A stretch of 12,811 nucleotides of DNA from the IMG/VR virus record IMGVR_UViG_2778261572_000006, positions 1 through 12,811 of that record. One strand, 5' to 3'. Positions 1-12,811 of the stretch are shown piece after piece. Source of the DNA: a virus. Lineage: Duplodnaviria > Heunggongvirae > Uroviricota > Caudoviricetes. The position numbers and the translations under genes were made by a program. The notes under the pieces were generated by a model that saw nothing but the letters and a program-made list of their open reading frames with translations, ran no database searches and was not told the origin of the DNA. Position 1 is the stretch's first letter. Every line of letters starts with the position of its first letter.

Positions 1-5
1 GTAAT

Positions 6-188
6 TTAAAAACGGTTCTGTGAAAGTGACACGAACCGATCTCCATCGATGTTACGGGCGACCGCCTCCTGCTGGTCTTCCGGGTAAAGGGAAATCAGTG
101 TCGCCTTGCGTTCGGCAAGAATGGTTTCAAAATCCAGCTCCTCGACCACATCCGGTGCGGGTAGCTGGTTCAGGTCGATAATCGGCAT
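6..188 (-). pseudogene. J: Baseplate assembly protein J (P2 gpJ-like), N-terminal fragment only: about 45 gpJ-like codons, then divergent sequence and an in-frame stop at 6..8
   Basis: Translation MPIIDLNQLPAPDVVEELDFETILAERKATLISLYPEDQQEAVAR matches the N-terminus of P2 gpJ as I remember it. The ORF ends after 60 codons, whereas gpJ-family proteins are about 300 aa. The start is 5 nt downstream of the W stop, as in P2 (V-W-J order). Confidence 0.65.
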
Positions 189-192
189 GGTT

Positions 193-540
193 TCAACTCA
201 CAGGGATGGTTAACGAAAGTGGCTGGCCGGTGTCGTTGTGCTGGCCGGTTAACGTGACCGTCATTCGCCCGTCAAAACTGCGCGCCGTGGTGACAGATGA
301 CAGCGTGACGCGGGGTTCCCATTTCAGCACCGCCATGTAACAGGCGACCTTAATCTGCAACTCAAGCGCCGGGGTCTGCGGCTGGTCAATCATTGACGCC
401 AGCAACGAGCCGTAATCACGACGCATCACCCGTGAGCCGACCGGTGTGCGCAGGATATCGCCGATACTCTGGCTGATATGCTCAAGGTCAGTGACCGTCA
501 GGCCATCACTGCGATTCATTCCGAGATAACGCGCTGTCAT
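193..540 (-). CDS. W: Baseplate wedge protein W (P2 gpW, gp25-like)
   Basis: The 115-aa product (MTARYLGMNRSDGLTVTDLEHISQSIGDILRTPVGSRVMRRDYGSLLASMIDQPQ...) matches remembered P2 gpW in length and sequence. Its start overlaps the V stop (ATGA-type coupling) and synteny is V-W-J. Confidence 0.9.
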   Translation of the reverse strand: MTARYLGMNRSDGLTVTDLEHISQSIGDILRTPVGSRVMRRDYGSLLASMIDQPQTPALELQIKVACYMAVLKWEPRVTLSSVTTARSFDGRMTVTLTGQHNDTGQPLSLTIPVS

Positions 541-1172
541 AGAGGGCTCCCGGTTGTGCCGCCGCTGTCGCCGGGGTGTTTATGGGTATGCAGTACCTTA
601 CCGTTTGATGAGAGTTCACCGCCGGTGTGTTCAATGTTGCCGCGCATCGTCCCGCCCTTCTGCACTTCCAGCGTGCCGGTAATCAGCCTGTTGGTGCAAA
701 CCACCTCCGGTGTGTCCAGGGTGACGCGGGTTGATGCTTTCACCATGACCACCGGCACCGTGGCAGTAACAGAATCAGAAGCCGTCACGCTGGCCGTTTT
801 AATTCCGCTTGCCGTGAGTGCACTGGTTTCGGGTTCATACTCAATCACCGCCCCGTCAGGGAAACGGATATGCAGGGCATCCGCCGACGCAGACGGCGCG
901 GGGTTATCGCCGGAATAAATCCCCGGCAGAACGAACGCCGTGTCGAGTTCACCGCCCACAGCCAGAATCAGCACCTGTTCCCCCACGGAAGGTGCCCACC
1001 ATGTGCGCGAACGTCCGGCGCGATGGGTCAGCCACTGAAGCCAGTCGGTGCACATGCCACCGGTCTGCACACGGCAGCGACCGGCTTTAAGGTTGGTTTC
1101 GACGACAAGGCCGGTACGAATCATGTTGCGCAGTGCGCGCGCGAGTTCCTGAATATTTGCGAGAGTGTTCAT
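537..1172 (-). CDS. V: Baseplate spike/hub protein V (P2 gpV)
   Basis: The ORF 537..1190 contains MNTLANIQELARALRNMIRTGLVVET..., which matches the P2 gpV N-terminus from the 7th codon. I take the ATG at 1172 as the start (211 aa); the upstream ATG at 1190 is a less likely alternative. Confidence 0.85.
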   Translation of the reverse strand: MNTLANIQELARALRNMIRTGLVVETNLKAGRCRVQTGGMCTDWLQWLTHRAGRSRTWWAPSVGEQVLILAVGGELDTAFVLPGIYSGDNPAPSASADALHIRFPDGAVIEYEPETSALTASGIKTASVTASDSVTATVPVVMVKASTRVTLDTPEVVCTNRLITGTLEVQKGGTMRGNIEHTGGELSSNGKVLHTHKHPGDSGGTTGSPL

Positions 1173-1255
1173 GCGTGTGAGATTGCACAATATATAAAAG
1201 TTATGCTATCTGGATTCATTTGTAGAACGACCATACAACATTCGAGGAGAGCGTA
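1173..1255. promoter_or_regulatory. Divergent intergenic region between V (minus) and the AT-rich gene (plus); candidate Ogr-type late promoter for V with a partial TGT-N11-ACA dyad at 1221..1237
   Basis: An 83-bp AT-rich spacer lies between two divergent start codons. TGT at 1221..1223 and ACA at 1235..1237 resemble the P2 late-promoter TGT-N12-ACA element, but the spacing is off by one. A GAGGAG Shine-Dalgarno sits 6 nt before the ATG at 1256. Confidence 0.3.
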
Positions 1256-2041
1256 ATGTTCAGTGATAATGTGACTAATGCGTGGTGGTTTATCTCTTTG
1301 TATCTATTTTTATTAATAGCATTAACATTTATTACCTTTGGTAAAAGTAATCTTATGAGGTTTATTGCACATTATTTCAATTTTGAGTATTCAGACAGAA
1401 AGTTAAAAATGCTCGACAAAAAATGGCGCGACATTCAACTATTTAAAATAATTAACGGAATCAATGTATCAGGCATCGAAGATGTGAGAATGATACAGCA
1501 GGGGCTGATTGATGGAAAACTAAAAACATCGTATTTTTTTCTTACTCGCTTCTGGGGTGACATAACAAAACCACCACACATAATTAAAACAATAATTGTA
1601 ATTCTGTCCAGCATTATTTATATTCTCTTCGCATGTTATATACACAACAAACAATCCGCTATAGTAAGAGATGCCATAGGCATACCATATAAAAAGATGA
1701 TGTACTATGTTTATAGTGACAAAGTTCTTTTATCCTTCAACAATAAAACAGTTGAATTCAATAAAACTTATAGCCTTGCCGATTGCAAGAGGCTACGAAA
1801 CGTATTTATAAAAGACACACTTCCTGAGATCGCCTGCAATAAGCTCTTACAGCTAAACGAGGAGGACTCGGAATGGTTAAGTCAGGAGATTAAAGATAAT
1901 AACAGCCAAAAAAAAGCATTATTAATAATATCCCTCATCTATTTCATTTCAGGTCTGGTTATATTCCTGTCATATACAAAATTCCTTTACGCCAATAAGA
2001 AGGTTGTAGAATACAAAGCATCAAATAAAAATCACTCATAA
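1256..2041 (+). CDS. AT-rich predicted integral membrane protein (three hydrophobic segments), function unknown; moron at the position of P2 orf30 (between S and V)
   Basis: A 261-codon ORF with a GAGGAG RBS 6 nt upstream. Hydrophobic stretches WWFISLYLFLLIALTFITF, IIKTIIVILSSIIYILFACYI and ALLIISLIYFISGLVIFLSY. Codon usage is very AT-rich (many AAA/AAT/ATT/TTA), unlike the flanking P2 genes. It is followed by a hairpin terminator. Confidence 0.6.
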   Translation: MFSDNVTNAWWFISLYLFLLIALTFITFGKSNLMRFIAHYFNFEYSDRKLKMLDKKWRDIQLFKIINGINVSGIEDVRMIQQGLIDGKLKTSYFFLTRFWGDITKPPHIIKTIIVILSSIIYILFACYIHNKQSAIVRDAIGIPYKKMMYYVYSDKVLLSFNNKTVEFNKTYSLADCKRLRNVFIKDTLPEIACNKLLQLNEEDSEWLSQEIKDNNSQKKALLIISLIYFISGLVIFLSYTKFLYANKKVVEYKASNKNHS

Positions 2042-2046
2042 ACCTC

Positions 2047-2086
2047 TAAACATTGAGCGACCAGCATGGCCGCTCAATGTTTAATT
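2047..2086. terminator. Bidirectional intrinsic terminator hairpin between convergent genes
   Basis: Perfect inverted repeat CATTGAGCG (2051..2059) and CGCTCAATG (2071..2079) with an 11-nt loop, extendable to a 13-bp stem (2047..2059 pairing 2071..2083). It is flanked by TTTAATT on the plus strand and an A/T run on the other side, and lies between the stop at 2041 (plus) and the stop at 2113 (minus). Confidence 0.6.
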
Positions 2087-2206
2087 GCGCATCAGCCTCT
2101 GCCTGGATAAAACTAACGCTCAAGGTGAGCCAGGATAATCTCTTCAATCATCTGCACATCCTCACCGGTAAAGCCGAGCAGAGGACGCGCCGGATAATCA
2201 ATTTTC

Positions 2207-2683
2207 TTACCGTCTTTCCGGTTTTCTTCCGACAGACCGAACTGATGCACACTGGCGATTTTCGGTGACTTTCCGCCGTAAAACTCCATTGATGCCTGTT
2301 CCGGGCTGGCGCGGATAACGCGCCCACAGGTCCAGCGTTTTGTAGCGGATATAAAAATCGAAGTTAATCTGGTCGCATTCGTACTTGTTTGACGCCAGCT
2401 TCGAGAAGTCCTTCGGCTGACGCTCGGTGCCACCGGCGGTGTCGGTGGTGCTGGCGATGGAGCCGGTGACACCAATACCAATTTTTTCCCCTTTCATTTC
2501 GCTGACCGGCACAATGTTGATGCGGGTCAGAAAATCAGAGGACTCCTGCATGGTGTTCATCAGGGTCTGGGTGACCGACGGTTCAACGGTGAATTTTTTC
2601 GACACATCACCGGCGTCGATGCCGTTCAGTTCGGCAACACGGGACAGGTAGGCATTAAATTTAAAGCGGGTTTCCTGGCGCAT
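2207..2683 (-). pseudogene. N: Major capsid protein N (P2 gpN), 5' fragment: first ~123 codons intact, then out-of-frame or unrelated sequence and a stop
   Basis: Translation MRQETRFKFNAYLSRVAELNGIDAGDVSKKFTVEPSVTQTLMNTMQESSDFLTRINIVPVSEMKGEKIGIGVTGSIASTTDTAGGTERQPKDFSKLASNKYECDQINFDFYIRYKTLDLWARY matches remembered P2 gpN. gpN is about 357 aa, but only about 570 bp exist between the start (2683) and the terminator (about 2110), so the gene cannot be complete. The expected downstream genes M, L, X, lysis, R and S are absent. Confidence 0.75.
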
Positions 2684-2741
2684 AGTTTTTCCTGAAATTA
2701 AGGGTTAATCGTGAAGGTTTTCCCGGACTGACTGACGCCGG

Positions 2742-3596
2742 TCAGCAGTTCGTCATCAGGGCGTCACCGCCACCGCCGGTGGCCTTGCTGCGGCGCTGCT
2801 GGGTCAGACTTTCGGTGTGGTCGAGGCTGTTTTTCAGGCGGGTGAATGCCTGGCTGGTTTCATCCGCCCTGTCAGTCACATCCTGCTTAAGTGCGGAAAA
2901 GGCGGTTTCCATCTCAGCGAGGCGCTGCTCAGTGGCGCTCAGTTTTTCCTGCACATGTTCAGCAACAGCGGTCACCGCTTCATGCACGTCATTCAGACGG
3001 GCGTCATCGCTGGCCTGTTTGCGGCCAAAAATGGATTTCACCTTTTCGGTCAGGGCGGTGAACACGGTTTCAGGCAGGTCTTCAAATTCCAGCTCAACAG
3101 GCGTTGCCACTGAAATCAGGTTTTCAGGGCTTAATTTGAAGCGGTTCAGGGGGTTGTGTTTTGCCGTGCGGCAGAATTCCAGGTATTCCGTGCCGAGGCT
3201 TGCCGGGTCATCGGTGACGGCCAGCCCCACCAGATAACATTTGCCGGTGTTGGCAAAGTTCGGCTGAATTTCCATTGAGGTGTAGACCTTCTGCGCGGCC
3301 TTGTTCATCGCGATAAGGTCATCGGTCGGGGTGATTTTCGCAAACAGCGCCCATTTGCCTTTCAGCGCCGAATCATCGTCAATCTTTTCGGCCTTCAGTT
3401 CGACCACATCGCCATAACGCTTAAAAATACCGTCAGGCAGGATGCCGCGCAGATGTTCCAGGTTAATGCGGCAACCATAGACTCGCGGGTCAAAGGTTTC
3501 GGCCATTTCCTGAATATCCTGCGCACTGATGACACGCCCGTCACAGGTGTCACCCTCAACGCCGATACGAAAGAATTTTGAGACTTTTTTTGCCAT
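2742..3596 (-). CDS. O: Capsid scaffolding protein O (P2 gpO)
   Basis: Product from MAKKVSKFFRIGVEGDTCDGRVISAQDIQEMAETFDPRVYG... to ...GGGGDALMTNC (284 aa) matches remembered P2 gpO. The ATG at 3596 is preceded by AGGAGTCCTGACA. The ORF-track start at 3662 is an upstream in-frame extension, not the real start. Confidence 0.9.
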   Translation of the reverse strand: MAKKVSKFFRIGVEGDTCDGRVISAQDIQEMAETFDPRVYGCRINLEHLRGILPDGIFKRYGDVVELKAEKIDDDSALKGKWALFAKITPTDDLIAMNKAAQKVYTSMEIQPNFANTGKCYLVGLAVTDDPASLGTEYLEFCRTAKHNPLNRFKLSPENLISVATPVELEFEDLPETVFTALTEKVKSIFGRKQASDDARLNDVHEAVTAVAEHVQEKLSATEQRLAEMETAFSALKQDVTDRADETSQAFTRLKNSLDHTESLTQQRRSKATGGGGDALMTNC

Positions 3597-3769
3597 TGTC
3601 AGGAGTCCTGAATAGTGATTAGAGGAGTCACATGTCGGCATCAGTTTCCCGACGATGCGCATCCTCCGCCATCAGTCCCGGATGGCTTATCACTGACACA
3701 ACAGCACCTTAGCGAATCGCGGGGCGCGACTCAGTAGCCTTGCCGTGTATTCATCACGGCGAGGTATTC
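3597..3769. promoter_or_regulatory. Divergent O/P intergenic region (expected site of P2 late promoters PO and PP); contains the dyad GTCGG-N10-CCGAC at 3634..3653
   Basis: A 173-bp spacer lies between divergent start codons of O (minus) and P (plus). A perfect 5-bp inverted repeat with a 10-nt spacer is seen directly. Assignment as Ogr-dependent late promoters is by synteny with P2 only. Confidence 0.35.
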
Positions 3770-5542
3770 ATGACCATCACCACAGACACCACTCTTTTAC
3801 ACGACCCGCGTCGTCAGGCGGCGCTGCTGTACTGGCAGGGATTTTCCGTGCCGCAGATTGCCACCATGTTGCAGATGAAACGCCCGACGGTGCAGAGCTG
3901 GAAACAGCGCGACGGCTGGGACAGCGTTGCCCCCATCAGCCGTGTCGAAATGAGTCTGGAAGCGCGGCTGACCCAGCTCATCATCAAACCGCAGAAAACC
4001 GGCGGTGACTTCAAGGAAATTGACCTGCTCGGACGCCAGATTGAACGACTGGCACGGGTCAACCGCTACAGCCAGACCGGCAACGAGGCAGACCTTAATC
4101 CGAACGTCGCTAACCGCAACAAAGGCGGGCGGCGCAAACCGAAAAAGAATTTTTTCAGTGACGAGGCCATCGAAAAGCTGGAGCAGATTTTCTTTGAGCA
4201 GTCTTTCGAATATCAGTTGCACTGGTATCGCGCCGGGCTTGAGCACCGCATCCGCGATATCCTGAAATCCCGCCAGATTGGCGCGACGTTTTATTTTTCC
4301 CGCGAGGCGCTGCTGCGCGCCCTGAAAACCGGTCATAACCAGATTTTTCTGTCGGCCAGTAAAACGCAGGCGTATGTGTTCCGCGAATACATCATCGCCT
4401 TTGCCCGGCTGGTTGACGTTGACCTGACCGGTGACCCAATTGTCCTGGGCAATAACGGCGCAAAACTGATTTTTCTCGGCACCAACTCCAACACCGCGCA
4501 GAGCCATAACGGCGACCTGTACGTCGACGAGATTTTCTGGATCCCGAATTTTCAGGTGCTCCGTAAGGTGGCATCAGGTATGGCCTCACAGAGTCACCTG
4601 CGCTCGACCTATTTCTCCACCCCGTCCACGCTGGCGCACGACGCCTACCCGTTCTGGTCCGGTGAACTGTTTAACCGGGGACGCGCCAGCGCCGCCGAAC
4701 GCGTGGAAATCGACGTCAGTCATAACGCCCTTGCCGGTGGGCTTCTCTGTGCGGACGGCCAGTGGCGGCAGATTGTCACCATTGAGGACGCCCTGAAAGG
4801 CGGCTGCACATTGTTCGACATTGAGCAGCTTAAACGCGAAAACAGCGCCGACGATTTTAAAAACCTGTTCATGTGTGAATTTGTTGACGACAAGGCGTCG
4901 GTGTTCCCGTTCGAGGAGCTGCAACGCTGCATGGTCGACACGCTGGAAGAATGGGAAGACTATGCGCCGTTTGCCGCGAATCCGTTCGGCTCCCGCCCGG
5001 TATGGATTGGTTACGACCCGTCACACCGTGGCGACAGCGCCGGATGCGTGGTGCTGGCACCGCCGGTGGTGGCCGGTGGCAAATTCAGAATACTTGAGCG
5101 TCACCAGTGGAAAGGCATGGACTTTGCCACTCAGGCGGAATCCATCCGCAAACTCACCGAAAAATACAACGTCGAATACATCGGTATTGATGCCACCGGC
5201 CTCGGTGTCGGCGTGTTCCAGCTCGTGCGCTCGTTCTATCCCGCCGCGCGCGATATCCGCTACACACCGGAAATGAAAACCGCAATGGTGCTCAAGGCAA
5301 AAGACGTTATCCGCCGTGGCTGTCTGGAATATGACGTCAGCGCCACCGACATCACCAGCTCGTTTATGGCTATCCGCAAGACCATGACCAGCAGCGGACG
5401 CAGCGCCACCTATGAGGCCAGCCGCAGCGAGGAAGCCAGCCACGCCGACCTCGCCTGGGCGACCATGCACGCCCTGTTAAATGAGCCACTCACCGCCGGT
5501 ATCAGCACCCCACTGACATCCACCATTCTGGAGTTTTACTGA
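3770..5542 (+). CDS. P: Terminase large (ATPase) subunit P (P2 gpP)
   Basis: Product MTITTDTTLLHDPRRQAALLYWQGFSVPQIATMLQMKRPT... (590 aa) matches remembered P2 gpP. A GAGG RBS precedes the ATG at 3770, and the stop overlaps the Q start by 1 nt. The ORF-track start at 3740 is an upstream extension. Confidence 0.9.
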   Translation: MTITTDTTLLHDPRRQAALLYWQGFSVPQIATMLQMKRPTVQSWKQRDGWDSVAPISRVEMSLEARLTQLIIKPQKTGGDFKEIDLLGRQIERLARVNRYSQTGNEADLNPNVANRNKGGRRKPKKNFFSDEAIEKLEQIFFEQSFEYQLHWYRAGLEHRIRDILKSRQIGATFYFSREALLRALKTGHNQIFLSASKTQAYVFREYIIAFARLVDVDLTGDPIVLGNNGAKLIFLGTNSNTAQSHNGDLYVDEIFWIPNFQVLRKVASGMASQSHLRSTYFSTPSTLAHDAYPFWSGELFNRGRASAAERVEIDVSHNALAGGLLCADGQWRQIVTIEDALKGGCTLFDIEQLKRENSADDFKNLFMCEFVDDKASVFPFEELQRCMVDTLEEWEDYAPFAANPFGSRPVWIGYDPSHRGDSAGCVVLAPPVVAGGKFRILERHQWKGMDFATQAESIRKLTEKYNVEYIGIDATGLGVGVFQLVRSFYPAARDIRYTPEMKTAMVLKAKDVIRRGCLEYDVSATDITSSFMAIRKTMTSSGRSATYEASRSEEASHADLAWATMHALLNEPLTAGISTPLTSTILEFY

Positions 5543-6576
5543 TGAGCAAGAAAAAAGGGAAAACACCGCAACCTGCGGCAAAAACAATGACCGCCAGCGC
5601 CCCGAAAATGGAGGCATTCACCTTTGGTGAGCCGGTGCCGGTACTCGACCGCCGTGACATTCTGGATTACGTCGAGTGCATCAGTAACGGCAGATGGTAT
5701 GAGCCGCCGGTCAGCTTTACCGGTCTGGCGAAAAGCCTGCGTGCTGCCGTGCATCACAGCTCGCCGATTTACGTCAAACGCAATATTCTGGCCTCGACAT
5801 TTATCCCGCATCCGTGGCTTTCCCAGCAGGATTTCAGCCGCTTTGTGCTGGATTTTCTGGTGTTCGGTAATGCGTTTCTGGAAAAGCGTTACAGCACCAC
5901 CGGTAAGGTCATCAGACTGGAAACCTCACCGGCAAAATATACCCGCCGTGGCGTGGAGGAGGATGTTTACTGGTGGGTGCCGTCCTTCAACGAGCCGACA
6001 GCCTTCGCGCCCGGCTCCGTGTTTCACCTGCTGGAGCCGGATATCAATCAGGAGCTGTACGGCCTGCCGGAATATCTCAGCGCCCTTAACTCTGCCTGGC
6101 TGAATGAGTCGGCCACGCTGTTCCGCCGCAAGTATTACGAAAACGGCGCACATGCCGGATACATCATGTACGTCACCGATGCCGTGCAGGATCGCAACGA
6201 TATCGAAATGCTTCGCGAAAACATGGTGAAATCGAAAGGCCGCAACAACTTTAAAAACCTGTTTCTCTATGCCCCGCAGGGAAAAGCCGACGGCATTAAA
6301 ATTATCCCGCTCAGTGAAGTGGCGACGAAGGACGATTTTTTTAATATCAAAAAAGCCAGTGCCGCAGACCTGCTGGACGCGCACCGCATCCCCTTTCAGT
6401 TGATGGGCGGCAAACCGGAGAACGTCGGGTCGCTGGGCGATATTGAGAAAGTAGCAAAGGTCTTTGTCCGCAATGAGCTTATCCCGTTACAGGACAGGAT
6501 CCGCGAGATAAACGGCTGGCTCGGTCAGGAGGTCATCCGATTTAAAAACTACTCACTGGACACTGACAACGGCTGA
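5542..6576 (+). CDS. Q: Portal protein Q (P2 gpQ)
   Basis: The 344-aa product MSKKKGKTPQPAAKTMTASAPKMEAFTFGEPVPVLDRRDILDYVECISNGRWYEPP... matches remembered P2 gpQ. It is translationally coupled to P and followed by a terminator and the cos site, as in P2. Confidence 0.9.
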   Translation: MSKKKGKTPQPAAKTMTASAPKMEAFTFGEPVPVLDRRDILDYVECISNGRWYEPPVSFTGLAKSLRAAVHHSSPIYVKRNILASTFIPHPWLSQQDFSRFVLDFLVFGNAFLEKRYSTTGKVIRLETSPAKYTRRGVEEDVYWWVPSFNEPTAFAPGSVFHLLEPDINQELYGLPEYLSALNSAWLNESATLFRRKYYENGAHAGYIMYVTDAVQDRNDIEMLRENMVKSKGRNNFKNLFLYAPQGKADGIKIIPLSEVATKDDFFNIKKASAADLLDAHRIPFQLMGGKPENVGSLGDIEKVAKVFVRNELIPLQDRIREINGWLGQEVIRFKNYSLDTDNG

Positions 6577-6580
6577 ACAT

Positions 6581-6604
6581 CGCCGCCTGCGGGCGGCTTT
6601 TTTA
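6581..6604 (+). terminator. Intrinsic terminator downstream of Q
   Basis: GC-rich hairpin GCCGCC-TGCG-GGCGGC (6582..6597) followed immediately by TTTTTT, 5 nt after the Q stop codon. Confidence 0.65.
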
Positions 6605-6746
6605 CACCCCGTCATCACGCCCTCACACGTTCGCCACTGTACAAAACACCCCGCAGACACACCAACGCCCCGGCAGGCCGACTAAACGCCATCACGACGC
6701 GCTCAGACGCTGAAAAAATAAAATCAGCACCACCGCCAGCGCGCAG

Positions 6747-6765
6747 TGCTTTCCCCGCCTCGCCC
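6747..6765. other. P2-type cos site (19-nt cohesive-end sequence, present here as its reverse complement)
   Basis: The plus strand reads GTGCTTTCCCCGCCTCGCC, the exact reverse complement of the P2 cohesive end GGCGAGGCGGGGAAAGCAC as I remember it. It lies about 170 bp downstream of Q, where cos is expected. Confidence 0.7.
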
Positions 6766-6991
6766 GCCCGCTTCATGGGTCGGTTTTGATGCAATTCCAA
6801 AAGCCGTCCTAACTCTCTTAGGCTAAATGTCCAACGAGAAAATAGTTCTTTGAATGTGAATGCATTTTAATGCAGAGTTATGCCCAGCATTTTTGTACAC
6901 TTCGATGTATCAAATGCGCTGCAAACGATCAAATATGGATGTTTTATCAAGCATCCCCCAAAAGATATTTACATCATCCCATGAGGTTAAG

Positions 6992-8065
6992 ATGGATAAC
7001 AAAATCGTAGAAATTGAGACAAATAAGCTTGATTTTGACCCTAAAAACCCACGTTTCTTTCGTCTCAATGATGCCAGTAACGCTGCAACAGTCATTGAGG
7101 AAATGTTAGATGACGAAAGTGTCCACGATCTAATGCTATCAATCGGTCAGCAAGGTTACTTTCCTGGAGAACCTTTATTGGCAGTAAAAAGCAATGGAAA
7201 CTACATCGTGGTTGAGGGAAACAGACGCTTAGCTGCTGTAAAGTTGCTCAATGGAGATCTGCTTCCTCCAAAAAGAAAACTTAAAGGTGTGCAAGAAATC
7301 ATTGATGATACTACCAATAAACCTAAGAAGCTTCCCTGCATCATTTATGAAAACCGAGAGGATGTACTGAGATATATCGGTTATCGTCATATAACTGGGG
7401 TCAAAGAATGGGACTCATTATCTAAAGCCAAATACCTTAAAGAGTTATGTGATACTTTTTATTCACATGAGCCTAAAGAGATAGTATTAAAAAATCTGGC
7501 TCGTGAGATTGGGAGTAAACCACATTATGTTGCAACACTTCTCACTGCACTGAACTTATATGAAGTCGCGCATGACCATGAGTTTTTTAATTTACCCATG
7601 AAGGCTTCTGACGTGGAATTTTCATATATAACCACAGCTTTGGGATATTCAAAAATCACAAACTGGTTAGGTCTACAGGATAAAAAGGATTTTTTAGACC
7701 CAAATTTAAATGAAGAAAACCTTAAGCGTTTATTCTCTTGGTTTTTTGTGCCTGACCAACAAGGTAGAACCATCATCGGTGAGTCTCGAAGAATAAAAGA
7801 TATTGCAGCAGTGGTTGAGAAACCCGAAGCAATTGAAATTCTCATGAAAAGTTCAAACTTGGATGAAGCATATCTATATACCAGCGGAGAAAGAGAAGCA
7901 TTAGATAAAGCACTAAACGCAGCTAGTGTTAAATTAAGAGTAGTTTGGGATATGCTACTTAAAGCTAAAGAATTAACATTAGAGCATGAAGAGGCTGCAT
8001 CTGAAATTTTTGAGATGTCAAAAAATATTAGAAATCAGATCAGAAGCAAAAGGGAGGATGATTGA
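6992..8065 (+). CDS. ParB/Srx N-terminal-domain protein (ParB-like NTPase/nuclease-type domain), 357 aa; candidate defence-module component
   Basis: ATG at 6992 is preceded by GAGGT 6 nt upstream. Motifs KLDFDPKNPRF and YIVVEGNRRLAAVKLL fit the ParB N-terminal-domain pattern (xPNPxQPR ... GERRxRAA-type arginine box). Codon usage is AT-rich. The ORF-track start at 6860 adds 44 non-conserved-looking codons and is treated as leader. Confidence 0.6.
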   Translation: MDNKIVEIETNKLDFDPKNPRFFRLNDASNAATVIEEMLDDESVHDLMLSIGQQGYFPGEPLLAVKSNGNYIVVEGNRRLAAVKLLNGDLLPPKRKLKGVQEIIDDTTNKPKKLPCIIYENREDVLRYIGYRHITGVKEWDSLSKAKYLKELCDTFYSHEPKEIVLKNLAREIGSKPHYVATLLTALNLYEVAHDHEFFNLPMKASDVEFSYITTALGYSKITNWLGLQDKKDFLDPNLNEENLKRLFSWFFVPDQQGRTIIGESRRIKDIAAVVEKPEAIEILMKSSNLDEAYLYTSGEREALDKALNAASVKLRVVWDMLLKAKELTLEHEEAASEIFEMSKNIRNQIRSKREDD

Positions 8066-8069
8066 GATT

Positions 8070-9095
8070 ATGATTACAAATCTTGATTCAATGCCTTCTA
8101 ATGAGCCTTATTTATGGGCTGATTATATTGAGATATTGGCCTTAACTAATATCGACAGGTCATTCAGTCGAGGAGACCTATATAGCACACTGCAAGCTCA
8201 ACCCGAAGCAGTACTAGCTGAAACAGATGAAGCAGAAGAAGAGGGCGTTTATGATGTTGATGATGAAAATGATGCGCCTGTACGCAAGAGAACAAAACGA
8301 AGTGTTAGTCGAGCATATACTGACAGAAAGTGGAGCTATGCGATAGGCTTCATACGACAACGCATTGATTTATTTGGGGATAGTTACCCTTTTACTTTAT
8401 CAGAAGACAACGATACTGTAGAGTTACGTGATATATCAGAAAAGCCACTGGAACATTTAGAAAGACTATATTTAGCTTTACTAATCTGTGCTAACATAAA
8501 ATATGTCAACATAATGAGCAGAAGAGAGATAACGCGCAGTTTTGAACTAATTAGTTTACCTATTTTTGAAAGCCTAATGCCTAGCGGTAGCATAATAAAA
8601 GCATGCTGGGCTTCTGGTGGTCAAGCGGCCCCTTACACTGGAACTCTATATAATAAATTTAAGAGTATTGCTTCCGATATCCGTTGCACAGCGAACTTCA
8701 AAGAACGAGATTTCAGTCGAGGAAATAGTGGTGACGGAGGCCTTGACATAATTGCCTGGCATCCAATGGGAGATCAACGAGATGCCATCCCTATTTCTTT
8801 TGTTCAGTGTGGCTGTTCTCAAGAAGAGTGGGAAGCGAAGCAGCTTGAGGCCTCACCTGCGATGCTCTACAGTAAATTCCCCGTAGCTCACCGATGGGCA
8901 ACTTATTATTTCTTACCTCAAGATCTACGATGGATAGATGGTGAGTGGGCGCATAAAAATAAGTTAGGCGATGCTATTTTTGTTGATCGCCTAAGATTAA
9001 TCAATTTAACCAGAGCATCTGATAATATTGATCACAGTCAAAATATTAGCTATCTAGATATCATCCTTGATCCTTCCAGCGCGATCGCTGCTTAA
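8070..9095 (+). CDS. Hypothetical protein with a C-terminal Mrr-like PD-(D/E)xK nuclease-type motif, 341 aa; candidate defence effector
   Basis: ATG at 8070 lies 12 nt after GGAGG (8053..8057), which is inside the last codons of the upstream gene; an alternative ATG is at 8058. The motif GDGGLDIIAW ... ISFVQCGC ... EEWEAK resembles the Mrr catalytic core GDGG[IV]D ... QxK, from memory. An acidic stretch (ETDEAEEEGVYDVDDENDAP) is followed by a basic patch (VRKRTKRSVSR). AT-rich. Confidence 0.55.
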   Translation: MITNLDSMPSNEPYLWADYIEILALTNIDRSFSRGDLYSTLQAQPEAVLAETDEAEEEGVYDVDDENDAPVRKRTKRSVSRAYTDRKWSYAIGFIRQRIDLFGDSYPFTLSEDNDTVELRDISEKPLEHLERLYLALLICANIKYVNIMSRREITRSFELISLPIFESLMPSGSIIKACWASGGQAAPYTGTLYNKFKSIASDIRCTANFKERDFSRGNSGDGGLDIIAWHPMGDQRDAIPISFVQCGCSQEEWEAKQLEASPAMLYSKFPVAHRWATYYFLPQDLRWIDGEWAHKNKLGDAIFVDRLRLINLTRASDNIDHSQNISYLDIILDPSSAIAA

Positions 9096-10030
9096 TCCCA
9101 TAAATCTGGAAGGTTTCTAGCAACCGCCTCAAACAATGGAGGCGGTACTGCATTACCTACCACAGTATATTTCATATTAATAGAAGCCCGTTCAGTTTCT
9201 GGGAAAATTAAATCCCCAAAACCTTGTAAAATAGCAGCCTCTCGATAGCTAAACCTACGAGCTGGTGCATCCGAAGTAAATTGCCACTTATCAGGTCCCA
9301 ATTTTTCTAATGTTGGACTTATTGGATGTAGAGGCATATGTCTAGGATTTGCAACAATTGTTTTAGATATCTGATCCCAATCTTGCCTACGGTTTCGCGA
9401 TAGATAATACCAATGAAAATCGGCGTCATAAAACTCGCCAACAGGCCAAACAGGCATATGCCCAATAGCATCACGAATTGTGGAATATGGTGTCAAACCA
9501 TCACCATGTGTTGGTTTTGGAAATTTGTATGTAATACCGTAGTCCTTTCGTATTCCTACGATAAAGATTCGCTTCCTATCTTGGGATACCCCATAATGGG
9601 ACGCATTCAGAATTTGCGAGCTTACTGTATAACCTGCTTCTTCGAAAACTTTGAATTGATCCTTTAATAAATGCTCAAAGTTACGCCTTACCATACCAGA
9701 GACATTCTCTACAATGAATGCTTTTGGCTTAATTTTACTCAAAGCACGGGCAAACTCTAAATATAGTGTATTAATCTTTCTATCTGCCTTCCTTGCCCCA
9801 CCTTGACTAAATCCTTGGCAAGGATAGCATCCGATGAGCAACTCAGCAGAAGGGAACGACTGGAGCCCTGAGATATCGCCCAAAATGTAGTCAGTTTCAG
9901 GATGGTTTTCTAAGTAAACGTCCCTTGCGTAAGGCAAAATATCATTTGCCATAAGCACATTGAAACCTGCGTTCAAAACTCCCGCATCAGAACCACCACA
10001 TCCAGAAAAAAGTGAAACTACAGTTGGCAT
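9092..10030 (-). CDS. DNA (cytosine-5)-methyltransferase, 312 aa
   Basis: Canonical C5-MTase motifs in order: SLFSGCGG (motif I, FxGxG), GCYPCQGFS (motif IV, PCQ catalytic Cys), ENV (motif VI), QDRKRIFIVG (motif VIII), then a ~100-aa variable region and RRFSYREAAILQGF ... VGNAVPPPLFEAV (motifs IX/X). An AGGAGG RBS lies 6 nt before the ATG at 10030. Its stop codon overlaps the stop of the convergent gene ending at 9095. Confidence 0.85.
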   Translation of the reverse strand: MPTVVSLFSGCGGSDAGVLNAGFNVLMANDILPYARDVYLENHPETDYILGDISGLQSFPSAELLIGCYPCQGFSQGGARKADRKINTLYLEFARALSKIKPKAFIVENVSGMVRRNFEHLLKDQFKVFEEAGYTVSSQILNASHYGVSQDRKRIFIVGIRKDYGITYKFPKPTHGDGLTPYSTIRDAIGHMPVWPVGEFYDADFHWYYLSRNRRQDWDQISKTIVANPRHMPLHPISPTLEKLGPDKWQFTSDAPARRFSYREAAILQGFGDLIFPETERASINMKYTVVGNAVPPPLFEAVARNLPDLWD

Positions 10031-10272
10031 TGACCCCTCCTAAAAACCGACCGCGTATTATAGCGAAACACCCCGTTGGGAAAAGCTAGATTTTGCCAAG
10101 TCTTGATATTCTCACGTTTTAGTAGTTGTGGCCATCTTTAACGAGAAAAAGATAAAATTGACTTCTCATTAATTTTCAATAGGTTTAATTGTAAGCTCAA
10201 ACTAACGCCTCGCGACACTCGTTATTCAACCCCGCCAGCCCTGAAAACAAGTTTCACGACTGGCGGCGTTCT

Positions 10273-10491
10273 CTATCGTCTGCGTTGTGGTGGCGCAACT
10301 CTGGACTGACCGATATGGTTAAACCGCCCGTAATTATCCCGGACTATTTCGGCACACCCGACCAGCTCATCGGGCGTCAGATTTTCGTTGACCATAATCC
10401 GCTGTAAACGCTGAACAATAGCCATCAGCTTGATATTTTTAGTTTTATGGTGCGGTATCTCGCCTGGTATTCTGTGCATTATCCAAGCCAC
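10273..10491 (-). CDS. Small hypothetical ORF (50-72 codons depending on start), uncertain
   Basis: An ORF in the interval between the DUF3850-like gene and the methyltransferase. There is no convincing RBS for any of the three in-frame ATGs (10491, 10479, 10425), and it overlaps the 3' end of the upstream gene. Kept only as a possibility. Confidence 0.25.
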   Translation of the reverse strand: MAWIMHRIPGEIPHHKTKNIKLMAIVQRLQRIMVNENLTPDELVGCAEIVRDNYGRFNHIGQSRVAPPQRRR

Positions 10492-10921
10492 CCGTTTTGC
10501 TGTGCACGCTCCATCTGTTCATCTGAATAGTTCCATGCTCCATCCGTGGCAACCATTGCCCCGCCAGACATCCCCGTCTCTGGTTCATACATAACAGCAA
10601 GGCCGAGCTGATGCATAATTTCATGATTAATTCTGAATACCAAGCCACGCTCACTAAGTTCTTTCCAGTTCACAATCTCATATGCGCCTGTATTAAGCAG
10701 CTCAATACTTAGCAAGACATAATCTTCCAGCCAGTCTGACAGGTCAGTAACATCTGTTATCCGGGCTTCAACATTTCGCCCCGTATACACACCCTGCACC
10801 CATTCATACAAAATCAACGTGTCCCCGCGCTCATAATTACGGTCATTTTTCCGGAACTCTGCACGTTTCTTTCCTTCCAGCACAAGGTCGAAATATTTTG
10901 CGTGCAGCTTTACCTCGTGAA
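10479..10921 (-). CDS. DUF3850/ASCH-like (PUA-fold) domain protein, about 147 aa
   Basis: ATG at 10921 is preceded by GGAGTGGA. The N-terminal MAKIHEVKLHAKYFDLVLEGKKRAEFRKNDRNYERGDTLILYE fits the ASCH/DUF3850 pattern (GxKxxExR ... GDxLxL). It lies immediately downstream of gene A on the same strand. The ORF-track start at 10967 overlaps the A stop and is less likely. Confidence 0.55.
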
Positions 10922-10930
10922 TTTTTGCCA

Positions 10931-12673
10931 TTATGTCCACTCCATTACTGTTGAGAATCCCGGCCACTCATCAGCGACCGGATACGTGAATTTTTTCCCG
11001 TCATAATTTACGGTCGCGCCACGCGCCAGCGCCTCAAGCTCCCATCGCTGCGGCCTGATACCGTTCTGAGCAAGGTCAACGCGGATACGGGTAATTTGCG
11101 TTCGTTCCGACCGGGTCAGTCTGGCCGATGGCGCTATTTCATGTGGTTTTAACGGGCTTCCGTTTCTCTGCTGACGATTTGGTGTTCTCAGTTCGTGTTT
11201 TAATGCACCTCTGAGCGCCCTCACGACCTCCGGGTCATTCCATTCGATAACACCGTCATCAACCAGATTAAGCACTGCTGCGGCGTGCTCAGAAGGCGTG
11301 GGAGCCGGTAACGAAGTATCACCACCGGTGAGCTTTCCACAGTTATTGACAGGACTCCGAGGCGCGGCGATGCCGCTTTTTAAAGTCAAAGGCTCAACGA
11401 CCGGAACTTTCGGCACAATGCGCCAGTCCGTCGTTCTGGTGATATGAATATGACGCGCGCCGAGATGCGGCGCGTAAATGCCGACCACTCTCTCGACTTC
11501 TTCCTCGTACTCGTTAACGTCATCCGACGGGCTACGGGCGACCCTGACAGTCTGACAATCGCGCGGGACATTTGCCCCGCCCTGCGCGCTGATATACAAC
11601 GCAAAATCACCACTGTCTGCGGCGGCGCGTGCAGCCTCGACGCGTTCGTCAAACTCATCAGCAATGCTGACGCCGCGAGGCAATTTGCGTAGCTCACGGT
11701 AAGCCCCCATTGTCGGCAGGCCAACCGTTTTAAATTGCGGAATGCGCCACGTTGACGCCCATGCGGTAACAGCCGCGGCAGTATCTTTAAGCGGCTTACC
11801 GGTATCGTTATCGAGCTGACCATCCAGTGCATAGCCGTCGATGTTTTTTGAGATGTATTTCGCGATATATCCCGCAGCACCGCCCCGGTTAAGGTGTTTT
11901 GCCTGAAAACGGTTTCGCGCGGCTCCTCTTTCGTCTCCATCCTCTTTGAGCGCGTAGCGACGCATGATTTCAATAATCTGGTTACGCTGGCGTGGATTAC
12001 AAAAAAGCATCATATGCCAGTGCGGCGTTCCGTCGTGGTGTGGCTCGACGACACGCAAACCGTAGACCTGTAAATCATTATCCTTGAATGCCGTGCGCAT
12101 CAGGCTCCAGATACGGCAGAGATAACGCTGCGCATCCTTTGGATTAAATGCCTCATCGTTCCAGCCGTGATTAAGCTGCACGGTTTTACTTTCGCCTTTT
12201 CCGACCTGACGTGTCGGGTGATACTTTGACGGCGCGGTCAGCGTGATAAACATCCCCACATCACCCTCTGCAGCGGCGTAACGCTCAATACCGGCAATGG
12301 TGTTCATCAGCTCCATCCGGCGAATTTCAGGATTAGAAATACTGCCCATCACCTTACTGATAAGGTCGATGCGCTCGCCGGTTTCCCTGTTTTCAAGGTC
12401 ACACGATTTAAGAAATTCCAGATTTGCCTGGCGGCGCGCACGCACATCACGAATGGCATGTTTACTGGCATAAGGAGAACGGTCTTTATTGACCTCCCCG
12501 ACAGCTATCAGTAACGCTTCATGCCAGCGCATACGCTGGCCTTTAAGCTGATGAGTCCACCACTCATCGTTAAACAGGCGGGCAATGGCAGAATATGCCT
12601 GCCTCGTGGTCATCTGCCCTTTACGGTATTTTTTCCAGTAAAGCGGGGAAATATTGAAAGCACATGCAGCGCC
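10931..12673 (-). pseudogene. A: Replication initiation protein A (P2 gpA, rolling-circle HUH endonuclease), 5'-truncated by an IS10 insertion; about 580 C-terminal codons remain
   Basis: The product contains the HUH-type motif PHWHMMLF and the active-site tyrosine region GYIAKYISKN and ends ...FSTVMEWT, as in remembered P2 gpA. Reading upstream of the first ATG (12613), the frame continues as ...AFNISPLYWKKYRKGQ, which is still gpA-like, up to 12673. There it abuts the IS10 terminus, and an in-frame stop follows 4 codons into the IS. Confidence 0.85.
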
Positions 12674-12719
12674 CTGATGAATCCCCTAATGATTTTGGTA
12701 AAAATCATTAAGTTAAGGT

Positions 12720-12788
12720 GGATACACATCTTGTCATATGATCAAATGGTTTCGCGAAAAATCAATAATCAGACAACAAGATGTGCGA
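12720..12788 (-). ncRNA. IS10 RNA-OUT antisense RNA (pOUT transcript), position inferred
   Basis: Placed purely from remembered IS10 coordinates (RNA-OUT spans about element positions 47-115 and is complementary to the transposase start region). Not independently derivable from this sequence. Confidence 0.35.
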
Positions 12789-12811
12789 ACTCGATATTTT
12801 ACACGACTCTC
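12781..12811 (+). CDS. tnp: IS10 transposase, N-terminal 10 codons (partial; runs off the window)
   Basis: ATGTGCGAACTCGATATTTTACACGACTCT translates to MCELDILHDS, the remembered N-terminus of IS10 transposase. Confidence 0.8.
   Translation, partial: MCELDILHDS

Follow-up and report, generated by a model that had tools for sequence, protein, structure and literature searches.

What a P2-like prophage carries between its portal gene Q, with the cohesive-end site cos beside it, and its replication gene A, and what this cargo does, is the question raised by the virus record IMGVR_UViG_2778261572_000006 (Caudoviricetes) of IMG/VR, whose positions 1 to 12,811 were analyzed here as a single stretch of 12,811 nucleotides (the window). 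Our reading, to which we assign a probability of roughly 80%, is that the interval is the cos-proximal hotspot of the P2 family with the cargo of Escherichia phage Wφ, consisting of a restriction-modification (RM)-like cassette of three genes (6992-10030) and an independent orf92-orf91 module beside A. The most likely function of the cassette is a putative methylation-protected restriction. The features on which this reading is built are the following.

5542-6576, plus strand: portal gene Q, the left conserved flank of the slot (Pfam Phage_portal)
6746-6764, no strand: cos, the 19-nt cohesive-end sequence, an exact match to the P2 cosR/cosL 19-mer
6794-6991, plus strand: AT-rich leader of the cassette (37% GC), with the left recombination breakpoint at 6793/6794
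6992-8065, plus strand: ParB/Srx-fold protein of 357 amino acids (Wφ orf98), with an N-terminal domain carrying an EGNRRLAA box, a ParB/KorB-like helix-turn-helix (HTH) and a C-terminal helical domain
8058-9095, plus strand: protein of 345 amino acids with a winged helix and a PD-(D/E)xK nuclease fold (Wφ orf96), assigned by fold comparison
9092-10030, minus strand: C5 cytosine DNA methyltransferase of 312 amino acids (Wφ mth), convergent with the nuclease gene (Pfam DNA_methylase, PF00145, E 1e-61)
10273-10479, minus strand: small conserved gene of 68 amino acids (Wφ orf92), called by PGAP (phrog_11386, E 2e-38)
10479-10931, minus strand: orf91 homologue of 150 amino acids, with a DUF3850/ASCH-like N-terminal domain (Pfam DUF3850, E 1e-17) and a DUF7415 C-terminal domain (E 2e-14)
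10931-12673, minus strand: replication gene A, the right conserved flank, truncated (Pfam Phage_GPA, E 2e-110)

The boundaries of the slot were determined by joining the ends of the P2 genome across cos and aligning this junction to the window. Window positions 3563-6793, which cover P, Q, the tQ terminator and cos, are 97.7% identical to P2 at the DNA level; the homology stops at 6793, 29 nt past cos, restarts at 10711, within orf91, and runs to 12673 at 96.3% identity. With Q (5542-6576) and cos (6746-6764) on the left, A (from 10931) on the right and P2 homology in both flanks, the interval occupies the old/tin position of P2, as had been proposed in a preliminary description of this DNA made from the sequence alone. 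That description had placed the swapped interval at 6577-10930, but compared to P2 the replacement covers 6794-10710, corresponding to 3.9 kb in the window and 3.0 kb in P2. To call the cargo completely different was too strong, since the DUF3850 gene is P2 orf91. All five of the cargo open reading frames (ORFs) it had listed are genes called by the NCBI PGAP pipeline in the identical locus of E. coli SMS-3-5, from which the coordinates of the cassette genes were taken. Its failure to see anything like Old (ABC ATPase plus TOPRIM) or Tin agrees with a tblastn search of these two P2 proteins against the whole window (best E 0.9), and the compositional break it had noted is clear, the cassette having 39.4% GC and a GC content at third codon positions (GC3) of about 30%, compared to 55.4% GC in the backbone and a GC3 of 64-72% in O, P and Q. 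The opposite-strand organization is also as it had been stated, but it is nothing special to this DNA: in P2, old and tin likewise point away from cos and toward A and orf91 has the orientation of A, and this organization is therefore the normal layout of the slot.

The interval is thus the accessory hotspot that phages of the P2 family have next to cos, known as the old/tin or "TO" region, for which the work of Odegrip from 2006 is reportedly a source. It has in common with the TO region of P2 the position between Q/cos and A, the conserved flanks, the breakpoint just past cos, a low-GC cargo, a main operon directed from cos to A and the retention of the orf91 N-terminal domain beside A. There is no difference in kind, the cargo of the window being that of Wφ and not that of P2.

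We investigated the variability of the slot using the portal protein as an anchor and keeping the best 80 IMG/VR loci, all of which have portals at least 99% identical; 73 of these contain a complete Q-cos-to-A slot and 72 contain both DNA anchors. When cargoes were clustered at an identity of at least 90% over at least 80% of both sequences, the 73 complete slots fell into 55 clusters, with lengths of 878-5644 bp and 32-42% GC. Of the 72 loci in which both DNA anchors are present, 64 lose homology to the window at one and the same base (6793). This number of clusters and the common left breakpoint support the proposal of the preliminary description that the locus is a hotspot in which the core flanks are kept and the cargo is swapped. 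The contrary outcome that it had named, a gene set belonging to the core in most relatives, was not what we found, since the exact cargo of the window is present in only one of the 73 slots (L062). The combination of old and tin is likewise found once (L034), and some system joining a ParB domain to a methylase is present in nine. The same locus has been reported to hold 1,650 gene arrangements among 18,150 occurrences (Rousset et al. 2022, PMC9122126), and four new defense systems were found at this position (Vassallo et al. 2022, PMC9519451).

The closest match to the interval is known: it is 99.5% identical at the DNA level to Wφ (NC_005056), where the genes are named orf98, orf96, mth, orf92 and orf91. 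Wφ carries this cargo as a viable phage, whereas in the window it lies in a degraded prophage truncated by an insertion sequence (IS), and the Wφ record annotates orf91 and orf92 as shorter genes than those of the window. When compared to 5426 complete E. coli genomes, the interval matched 2155 in part, through its flanks, and only 104 in full; the ParB/nuclease gene pair occurs in exactly those 104 genomes, in one chromosomal copy each and at an identity of at least 99%. IS5-family elements break the ParB/nuclease genes in two E. coli genomes (H16/H67 and H19/H68), and a third (H20) has an IS2 inside the interval; these insertions are consistent with the occasional inactivation of a restriction arm.

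The exact gene set has also been published. Table S5A of Rousset et al. (2022, PMC9122126) contains the arrangement under the SMS-3-5 accessions WP_000368931, WP_000570053, WP_001143634 and WP_000554771, and Table S5B gives the ParB-like sequence verbatim under system #2, an "RM-like system" with 1,136 occurrences, an entry that lumps several variants (PMC9122126). Their Table S2B further includes a three-gene construct, pFR107, described as "RM-like" and taken from the P2 locus of E. coli ATCC 9637 (E. coli W) (PMC9122126), the host named in the Wφ GenBank record. The ParB-like and methylase sequences of pFR107 match those of the window, and its nuclease, which is annotated from a later start, shows a single residue difference in the part common to both. 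We considered whether the "putative plasmid partitioning system" of the same study might be this ParB-like gene and rejected it, as that entry is StbA plus Plasmid_stab_B. The main text of a 2026 Nucleic Acids Research paper on P2/P4 hotspots does not mention the cassette genes, and our search of the literature on ParB-based defense coupled to a methylase returned nothing that concerned this cassette specifically. The variable locus as well as the exact gene set are therefore already known from the Wφ GenBank record and from Rousset et al. (2022); the hotspot observation adds nothing new, and what remains of value is the mechanism of a common RM-like cassette.

The organization of the three genes indicates that they belong together. 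The stop codon region of the ParB-like gene overlaps the start of the nuclease gene by 8 nt, and these two genes are, as read from the sequence, translationally coupled; the convergent stop codons of the nuclease and methylase genes overlap by 4 nt. We then analyzed the genomic context of seven nuclease homologues, from Aquabacterium, Oryzomicrobium, Methylotenera, Ramlibacter, a metagenomic lineage, Enterobacter and Pantoea. The ParB-like gene, the nuclease gene and a C5 methylase were present in all seven, and in six of them the three were directly adjacent in the same order, with the methylase convergent. In Ramlibacter the pair is followed by a vsr gene and then by a gene of 1044 amino acids, and the methylase lies about 3.5 kb from the pair. 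The vsr very-short-patch repair gene (L092, 4915-5337), which is directly 3′ of the pair, is a typical companion of C5 cytosine methylation. The Enterobacter and Pantoea homologues are in P2/186-type prophages, and the homologue of the metagenomic lineage adjoins a TIR-STAND gene. The ParB/nuclease pair and the convergent C5 methylase thus form one cassette that is conserved across unrelated Beta- and Gammaproteobacteria, and the earlier treatment of a ParB-like/Mrr-like pair as a unit apart from the methyltransferase had to be given up. The endonuclease-fold gene is genetically linked to a methylase, as is expected of an RM system.

The model of the ParB-like protein has a predicted local distance difference test score (pLDDT) of 86.5, and its best fold matches were KorB (7.9), the serine kinase SerK (7.9), sulfiredoxin (7.6), the pNOB8-like ParB N-terminal domain (7.4) and Spo0J (7.4), with a further resemblance to the DNA-binding domains of KorB (6.4) and ParB (6.3). 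The EGNRRLAA box is invariant, and the ParB/Srx fold carries the GxxR nucleotide-binding box. The model thus shows a ParB/KorB-like, putatively nucleotide-binding N-terminal domain together with an HTH; the name "ParB-like" that the preliminary description gave to the first gene agrees with this fold and with the PGAP call of a ParB N-terminal domain protein. A ParA-like gene, the partner that a partition ParB would have, was not found in the slot or in the homologous contexts examined. Downstream of the GNRR box lies an R-x5-H...W motif (RYIGYRH, residues 127-133, window 7370-7390), which is kept in all of the divergent ParB-like proteins of the slot and has a K-H...W version in the A protein of PD-λ-5, a known defense system.

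The nuclease protein, which PGAP calls hypothetical, had no sequence match in Pfam, NCBIfam, PADLOC or PDB, and its identity came solely from fold comparison of an AlphaFold2 model (pLDDT 91.5). The GDGGID, QCGCS and KQLEA motifs vary little or not at all across 48 homologues; residues D226, D230, Q250 and K261 are invariant and E264 is nearly so, and the QCG motif is without its usual lysine. From the fold and these invariant residues only, we infer that the protein is catalytically competent. The term "Mrr-like" that had been applied to it is appropriate for the general restriction-endonuclease fold and the GDGGID/QC motifs but does not extend to membership of the Mrr family: the Mrr_cat profile did not match the window nuclease, and only two of the 48 homologues matched it, at E ~0.13. 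An exhaustive profile search placed 1,507 clusters at 50% identity in the nuclease family (E <=0.001), with 455 at E <=1e-30.

The third protein is a DNA methyltransferase whose catalytic motifs are intact; the PF00145 match covers the full profile and the PCQ and ENV motifs align with M.HaeIII. The alignment to M.HaeIII is full-length (E 1.6e-48) and includes the SRNR...R stretch of the recognition domain; because it spans the target-recognition region, a GGCC specificity is possible. Counts of GGCC sites in the window showed no informative depletion.

Relatives of the cassette in the same slot provide evidence for how its parts combine.

L023: ParB-like protein, nuclease and C5 methylase, with 32%, 24% and 98% identity to the window proteins, respectively
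L012 and L075: ParB-like protein, nuclease and C5 methylase, with 34%, 26% and 76% identity, respectively
L084: inverted arrangement, with a C5 methylase (63%), a ParB-like protein (27%) and a nuclease-like ORF without a tblastn hit
L018: ParB/nuclease-type pair with a Dam-class methylase; the ParB-like protein is 26% identical and the nuclease-like ORF has no tblastn hit
L026, L048 and L060: bona fide PD-λ-5, with A matching over its full length (E 9e-168) and B at E 8e-122

In L023 the DNA ceases to match the window precisely at the junction between the nuclease and methylase stop codons (9092/9093), while orf92 and orf91 are kept; this break at the convergent stops, together with the 98% identity of the methylase, indicates that the restriction arm was swapped as a sub-module under the same methylase. 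Divergent versions of the ParB/nuclease pair are coupled to other methylases, and since the pair of L018 is accompanied by a Dam-class (DPPY) N6-adenine methylase, the class of methylase is interchangeable in this type of system. As the restriction pair diverges, some methylase is always kept.

The nearest characterized system is PD-λ-5, which defends broadly against phages and was called a compact RM and abortive infection (Abi) system by its discoverers (Vassallo et al. 2022, PMC9519451). The ParB-like protein of the window matches PD-Lambda-5_A at E 3e-24, covering only positions 1 to ~160 of models that are 440-466 positions long, whereas the A protein of the genuine PD-λ-5 of L026 is matched over positions 1-465 (E 9e-168). 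PD-Lambda-5_B was absent from the 25 best PADLOC matches of the window methylase, which is of the C5 class (PF00145). Judged by these profile matches, the cassette is a relative of PD-λ-5 that falls outside the system itself, because the A match is partial and the nuclease has no PADLOC model. The two share a ParB-fold N-terminal domain with a GNRR box, the downstream R/K-H...W motif, linkage to a methyltransferase and the P2 slot. PD-λ-5 consists of two genes, with an A protein of ~450-520 amino acids that has a fused C-terminal HEPN-type part and a B protein that is a Dam-class (D12) methylase, whereas the cassette has three, namely those for a C5 methylase, for a nuclease of the PD-(D/E)xK type that is a protein of its own, and for a shorter ParB-like protein that contains an HTH and a helical tail.

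Other known systems share single aspects of this design. Operons joining ParB, an MAE_28990-type HEPN protein and a DNA methylase have been described (Anantharaman 2013, PMC3710099), and these, like GmrSD (DUF262 + DUF1524), combine a ParB/Srx-superfamily domain with a nuclease effector in a restriction context; their effectors are HEPN or HNH, whereas that of the cassette has the restriction-endonuclease fold, and the cassette has its own methylase, unlike GmrSD-type type IV enzymes. With type II RM systems that have a HaeIII-like C5 methylase, the cassette shares the full-length M.HaeIII alignment, the convergent R and M genes, the PD-(D/E)xK fold of the nuclease and, beside one homologue, vsr. 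The restriction arm of the cassette nevertheless needs, or at any rate always keeps, a second, ParB-like protein, and orthodox type II enzymes have no such partner.

In the mechanism that we favor, methylation-protected restriction, the methyltransferase would mark the DNA of the host and the prophage, and the ParB-like protein and the nuclease, acting jointly as the restriction arm, would cut unmethylated DNA that enters the cell. The restriction genes, read from cos toward A, would be expressed in the lysogen, like old and tin; the leader (6794-6991) is the presumed site of a lysogen-active promoter, because the old-tin transcripts of P2 start at the equivalent place. More speculatively, the ParB-like protein may act as a nucleoside triphosphate (NTP)-gated DNA clamp or sensor that licenses the nuclease. 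Several observations weigh against this interpretation. A promoter scan gave nothing above chance level, and the textbook (D/E)xK lysine is missing from the QCG motif of the nuclease. In addition, pFR107 is among the "additional tested systems" of Table S2B and not the validated systems of Table S2A (Rousset et al. 2022, PMC9122126). There is thus no reported protection by this cassette against the eight phages of that study in K-12 MG1655. The McrBC and Mrr enzymes of K-12 attack DNA modified with 5-methylcytosine (m5C), and MG1655 carries both. A host deleted for mrr was needed by Vassallo et al. for PD-λ-5 (PMC9519451). Given the attack on m5C in MG1655 and this requirement of PD-λ-5, the pFR107 result is weak evidence and may reflect the host.

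Among the alternatives, the cassette could be mainly a selfish addiction module, in which loss of the element would be lethal to the cell through the methylase and nuclease, an effect that would stabilize the prophage or its remnant rather than protect against phages. The prophage is decayed, yet its three cassette proteins are intact and 100% identical to those of the undeleted relative L062, which would fit such a role, as would the cloned cassette without reported phage defense and the IS5 and IS2 elements in or beside the cassette in a few genomes, which are expected if a toxic restriction arm gets inactivated. However, RM systems can combine addiction and defense, the slot is enriched for validated defense systems and the related PD-λ-5 defends broadly, and we therefore consider a mainly selfish function rather unlikely. 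A somewhat lower probability is given to an RM and Abi system of the PD-λ-5 type, in which a ParB-like sensor would trigger the nuclease so that the infected cell is killed or arrested, in place of a selective cleavage of the phage DNA. PD-λ-5 occupies the same slot and the ParB-like protein matches its A models over the first ~150 residues, but the match ends before the effector part, the effector here is a separate DNA-nuclease fold instead of a fused HEPN RNase-type domain, and a C5 methylase replaces the Dam-class PD-Lambda-5_B.

It is much less probable, and the least likely of the rival explanations, that the pair is a type IV modification-dependent enzyme or a partition or regulatory pair, with the methyltransferase being an orphan that shields phage DNA from host restriction. 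ParB-fold domains do occur in the type IV enzyme GmrSD, weak GmrSD_N matches were obtained for 7 of the 48 homologues, and public annotation calls the first gene ParB. On the other hand, a type IV enzyme beside the methylase that makes its own substrate would be suicidal, and a partition system would lack its ParA partner in this locus. Because the linkage to a methylase is constant, holding in all seven contexts and, with another methylase, where the pair has diverged, and because ParA is absent, we place this explanation last.

The genes between the cassette and A are a separate matter. The small ORF that the preliminary description had regarded as uncertain is a real conserved gene, Wφ orf92, and the DUF3850 gene that it had taken as new cargo, apart from P2 orf91, is that same gene, residues 1-74 of the homologue being 95% identical to P2 Orf91; the DUF7415 C-terminal half is not present in P2. 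The start codon of orf91 overlaps the stop of gene A. Among the 73 complete slots, the orf91 N-terminal domain is found in 14, and in 13 of these it is accompanied by orf92 and the DUF7415 extension, the exception being the P2-type locus L034. Since orf91 occurs with several different cargoes, it belongs to a semi-conserved module beside A that is independent of the cassette. In the overall reading given at the outset, orf92-orf91 (10273-10931) is co-transcribed with A, is partly common to P2 and is unrelated to the three-gene cassette.

Across the window, the P2-type genes follow one another as J′, W, V, orf30, a remnant in which N is fused to a downstream late gene, O, P, Q, cos, the cargo, orf91 and A′. 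Two further features adjoin the flanking genes.

6582-6597, plus strand: tQ-like intrinsic terminator directly 3′ of Q, a GC-rich hairpin followed by a T-run
12674-12811, no strand: end of an IS10-type element (ISVsa5) that interrupts gene A, assigned by sequence identity

The annotated tQ terminator of P2 is at the position equivalent to this hairpin. About 580 of 761 codons are left of gene A, with in-frame stops upstream, and the P2 homology ends at 12673; the sequence that follows is 100% identical to one that, in ~1,700 E. coli genomes, is annotated as an IS4-like ISVsa5 family transposase. At the other end, the reading frame of J runs for 60 codons and the match to intact relatives stops within this gene, at window position 53. 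A deletion of 4.7 kb between N and S has left a 4-bp junction at 2314-2317. The prophage is a defective remnant, with J truncated, the DNA between N and S lost and A cut by an IS. An ORF at 1256-2041 on the plus strand (261 amino acids, 32% GC) shares 85% identity with P2 Orf30, which is nonessential, and has the same place as in P2, between S and V, being a second low-GC accessory gene. The complete E. coli chromosome records H4, H6-H9 and H12-H15 start exactly at the start codon of gene A of this prophage and match at record positions 2287-6640; these assemblies were apparently rotated to the phage replication gene and not to dnaA.

Returning to methylation-protected restriction by the cassette, a more specific possibility, which we advance only tentatively, is that it represents a distinct class of RM system in which a ParB/KorB-type NTP-gated DNA clamp would locate DNA lacking methylation and then license a separate PD-(D/E)xK nuclease. 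If so, few cargoes of the P2 hotspot would be commoner than this class (system #2, with 1,136 occurrences), which was perhaps missed functionally through assay in an m5C-restricting host. The nuclease of the window has no PADLOC model. If the ParB-like protein is indeed an NTP-gated partner of the nuclease, this would link ParB-type molecular switches to restriction and would explain the PD-λ-5 family as well.

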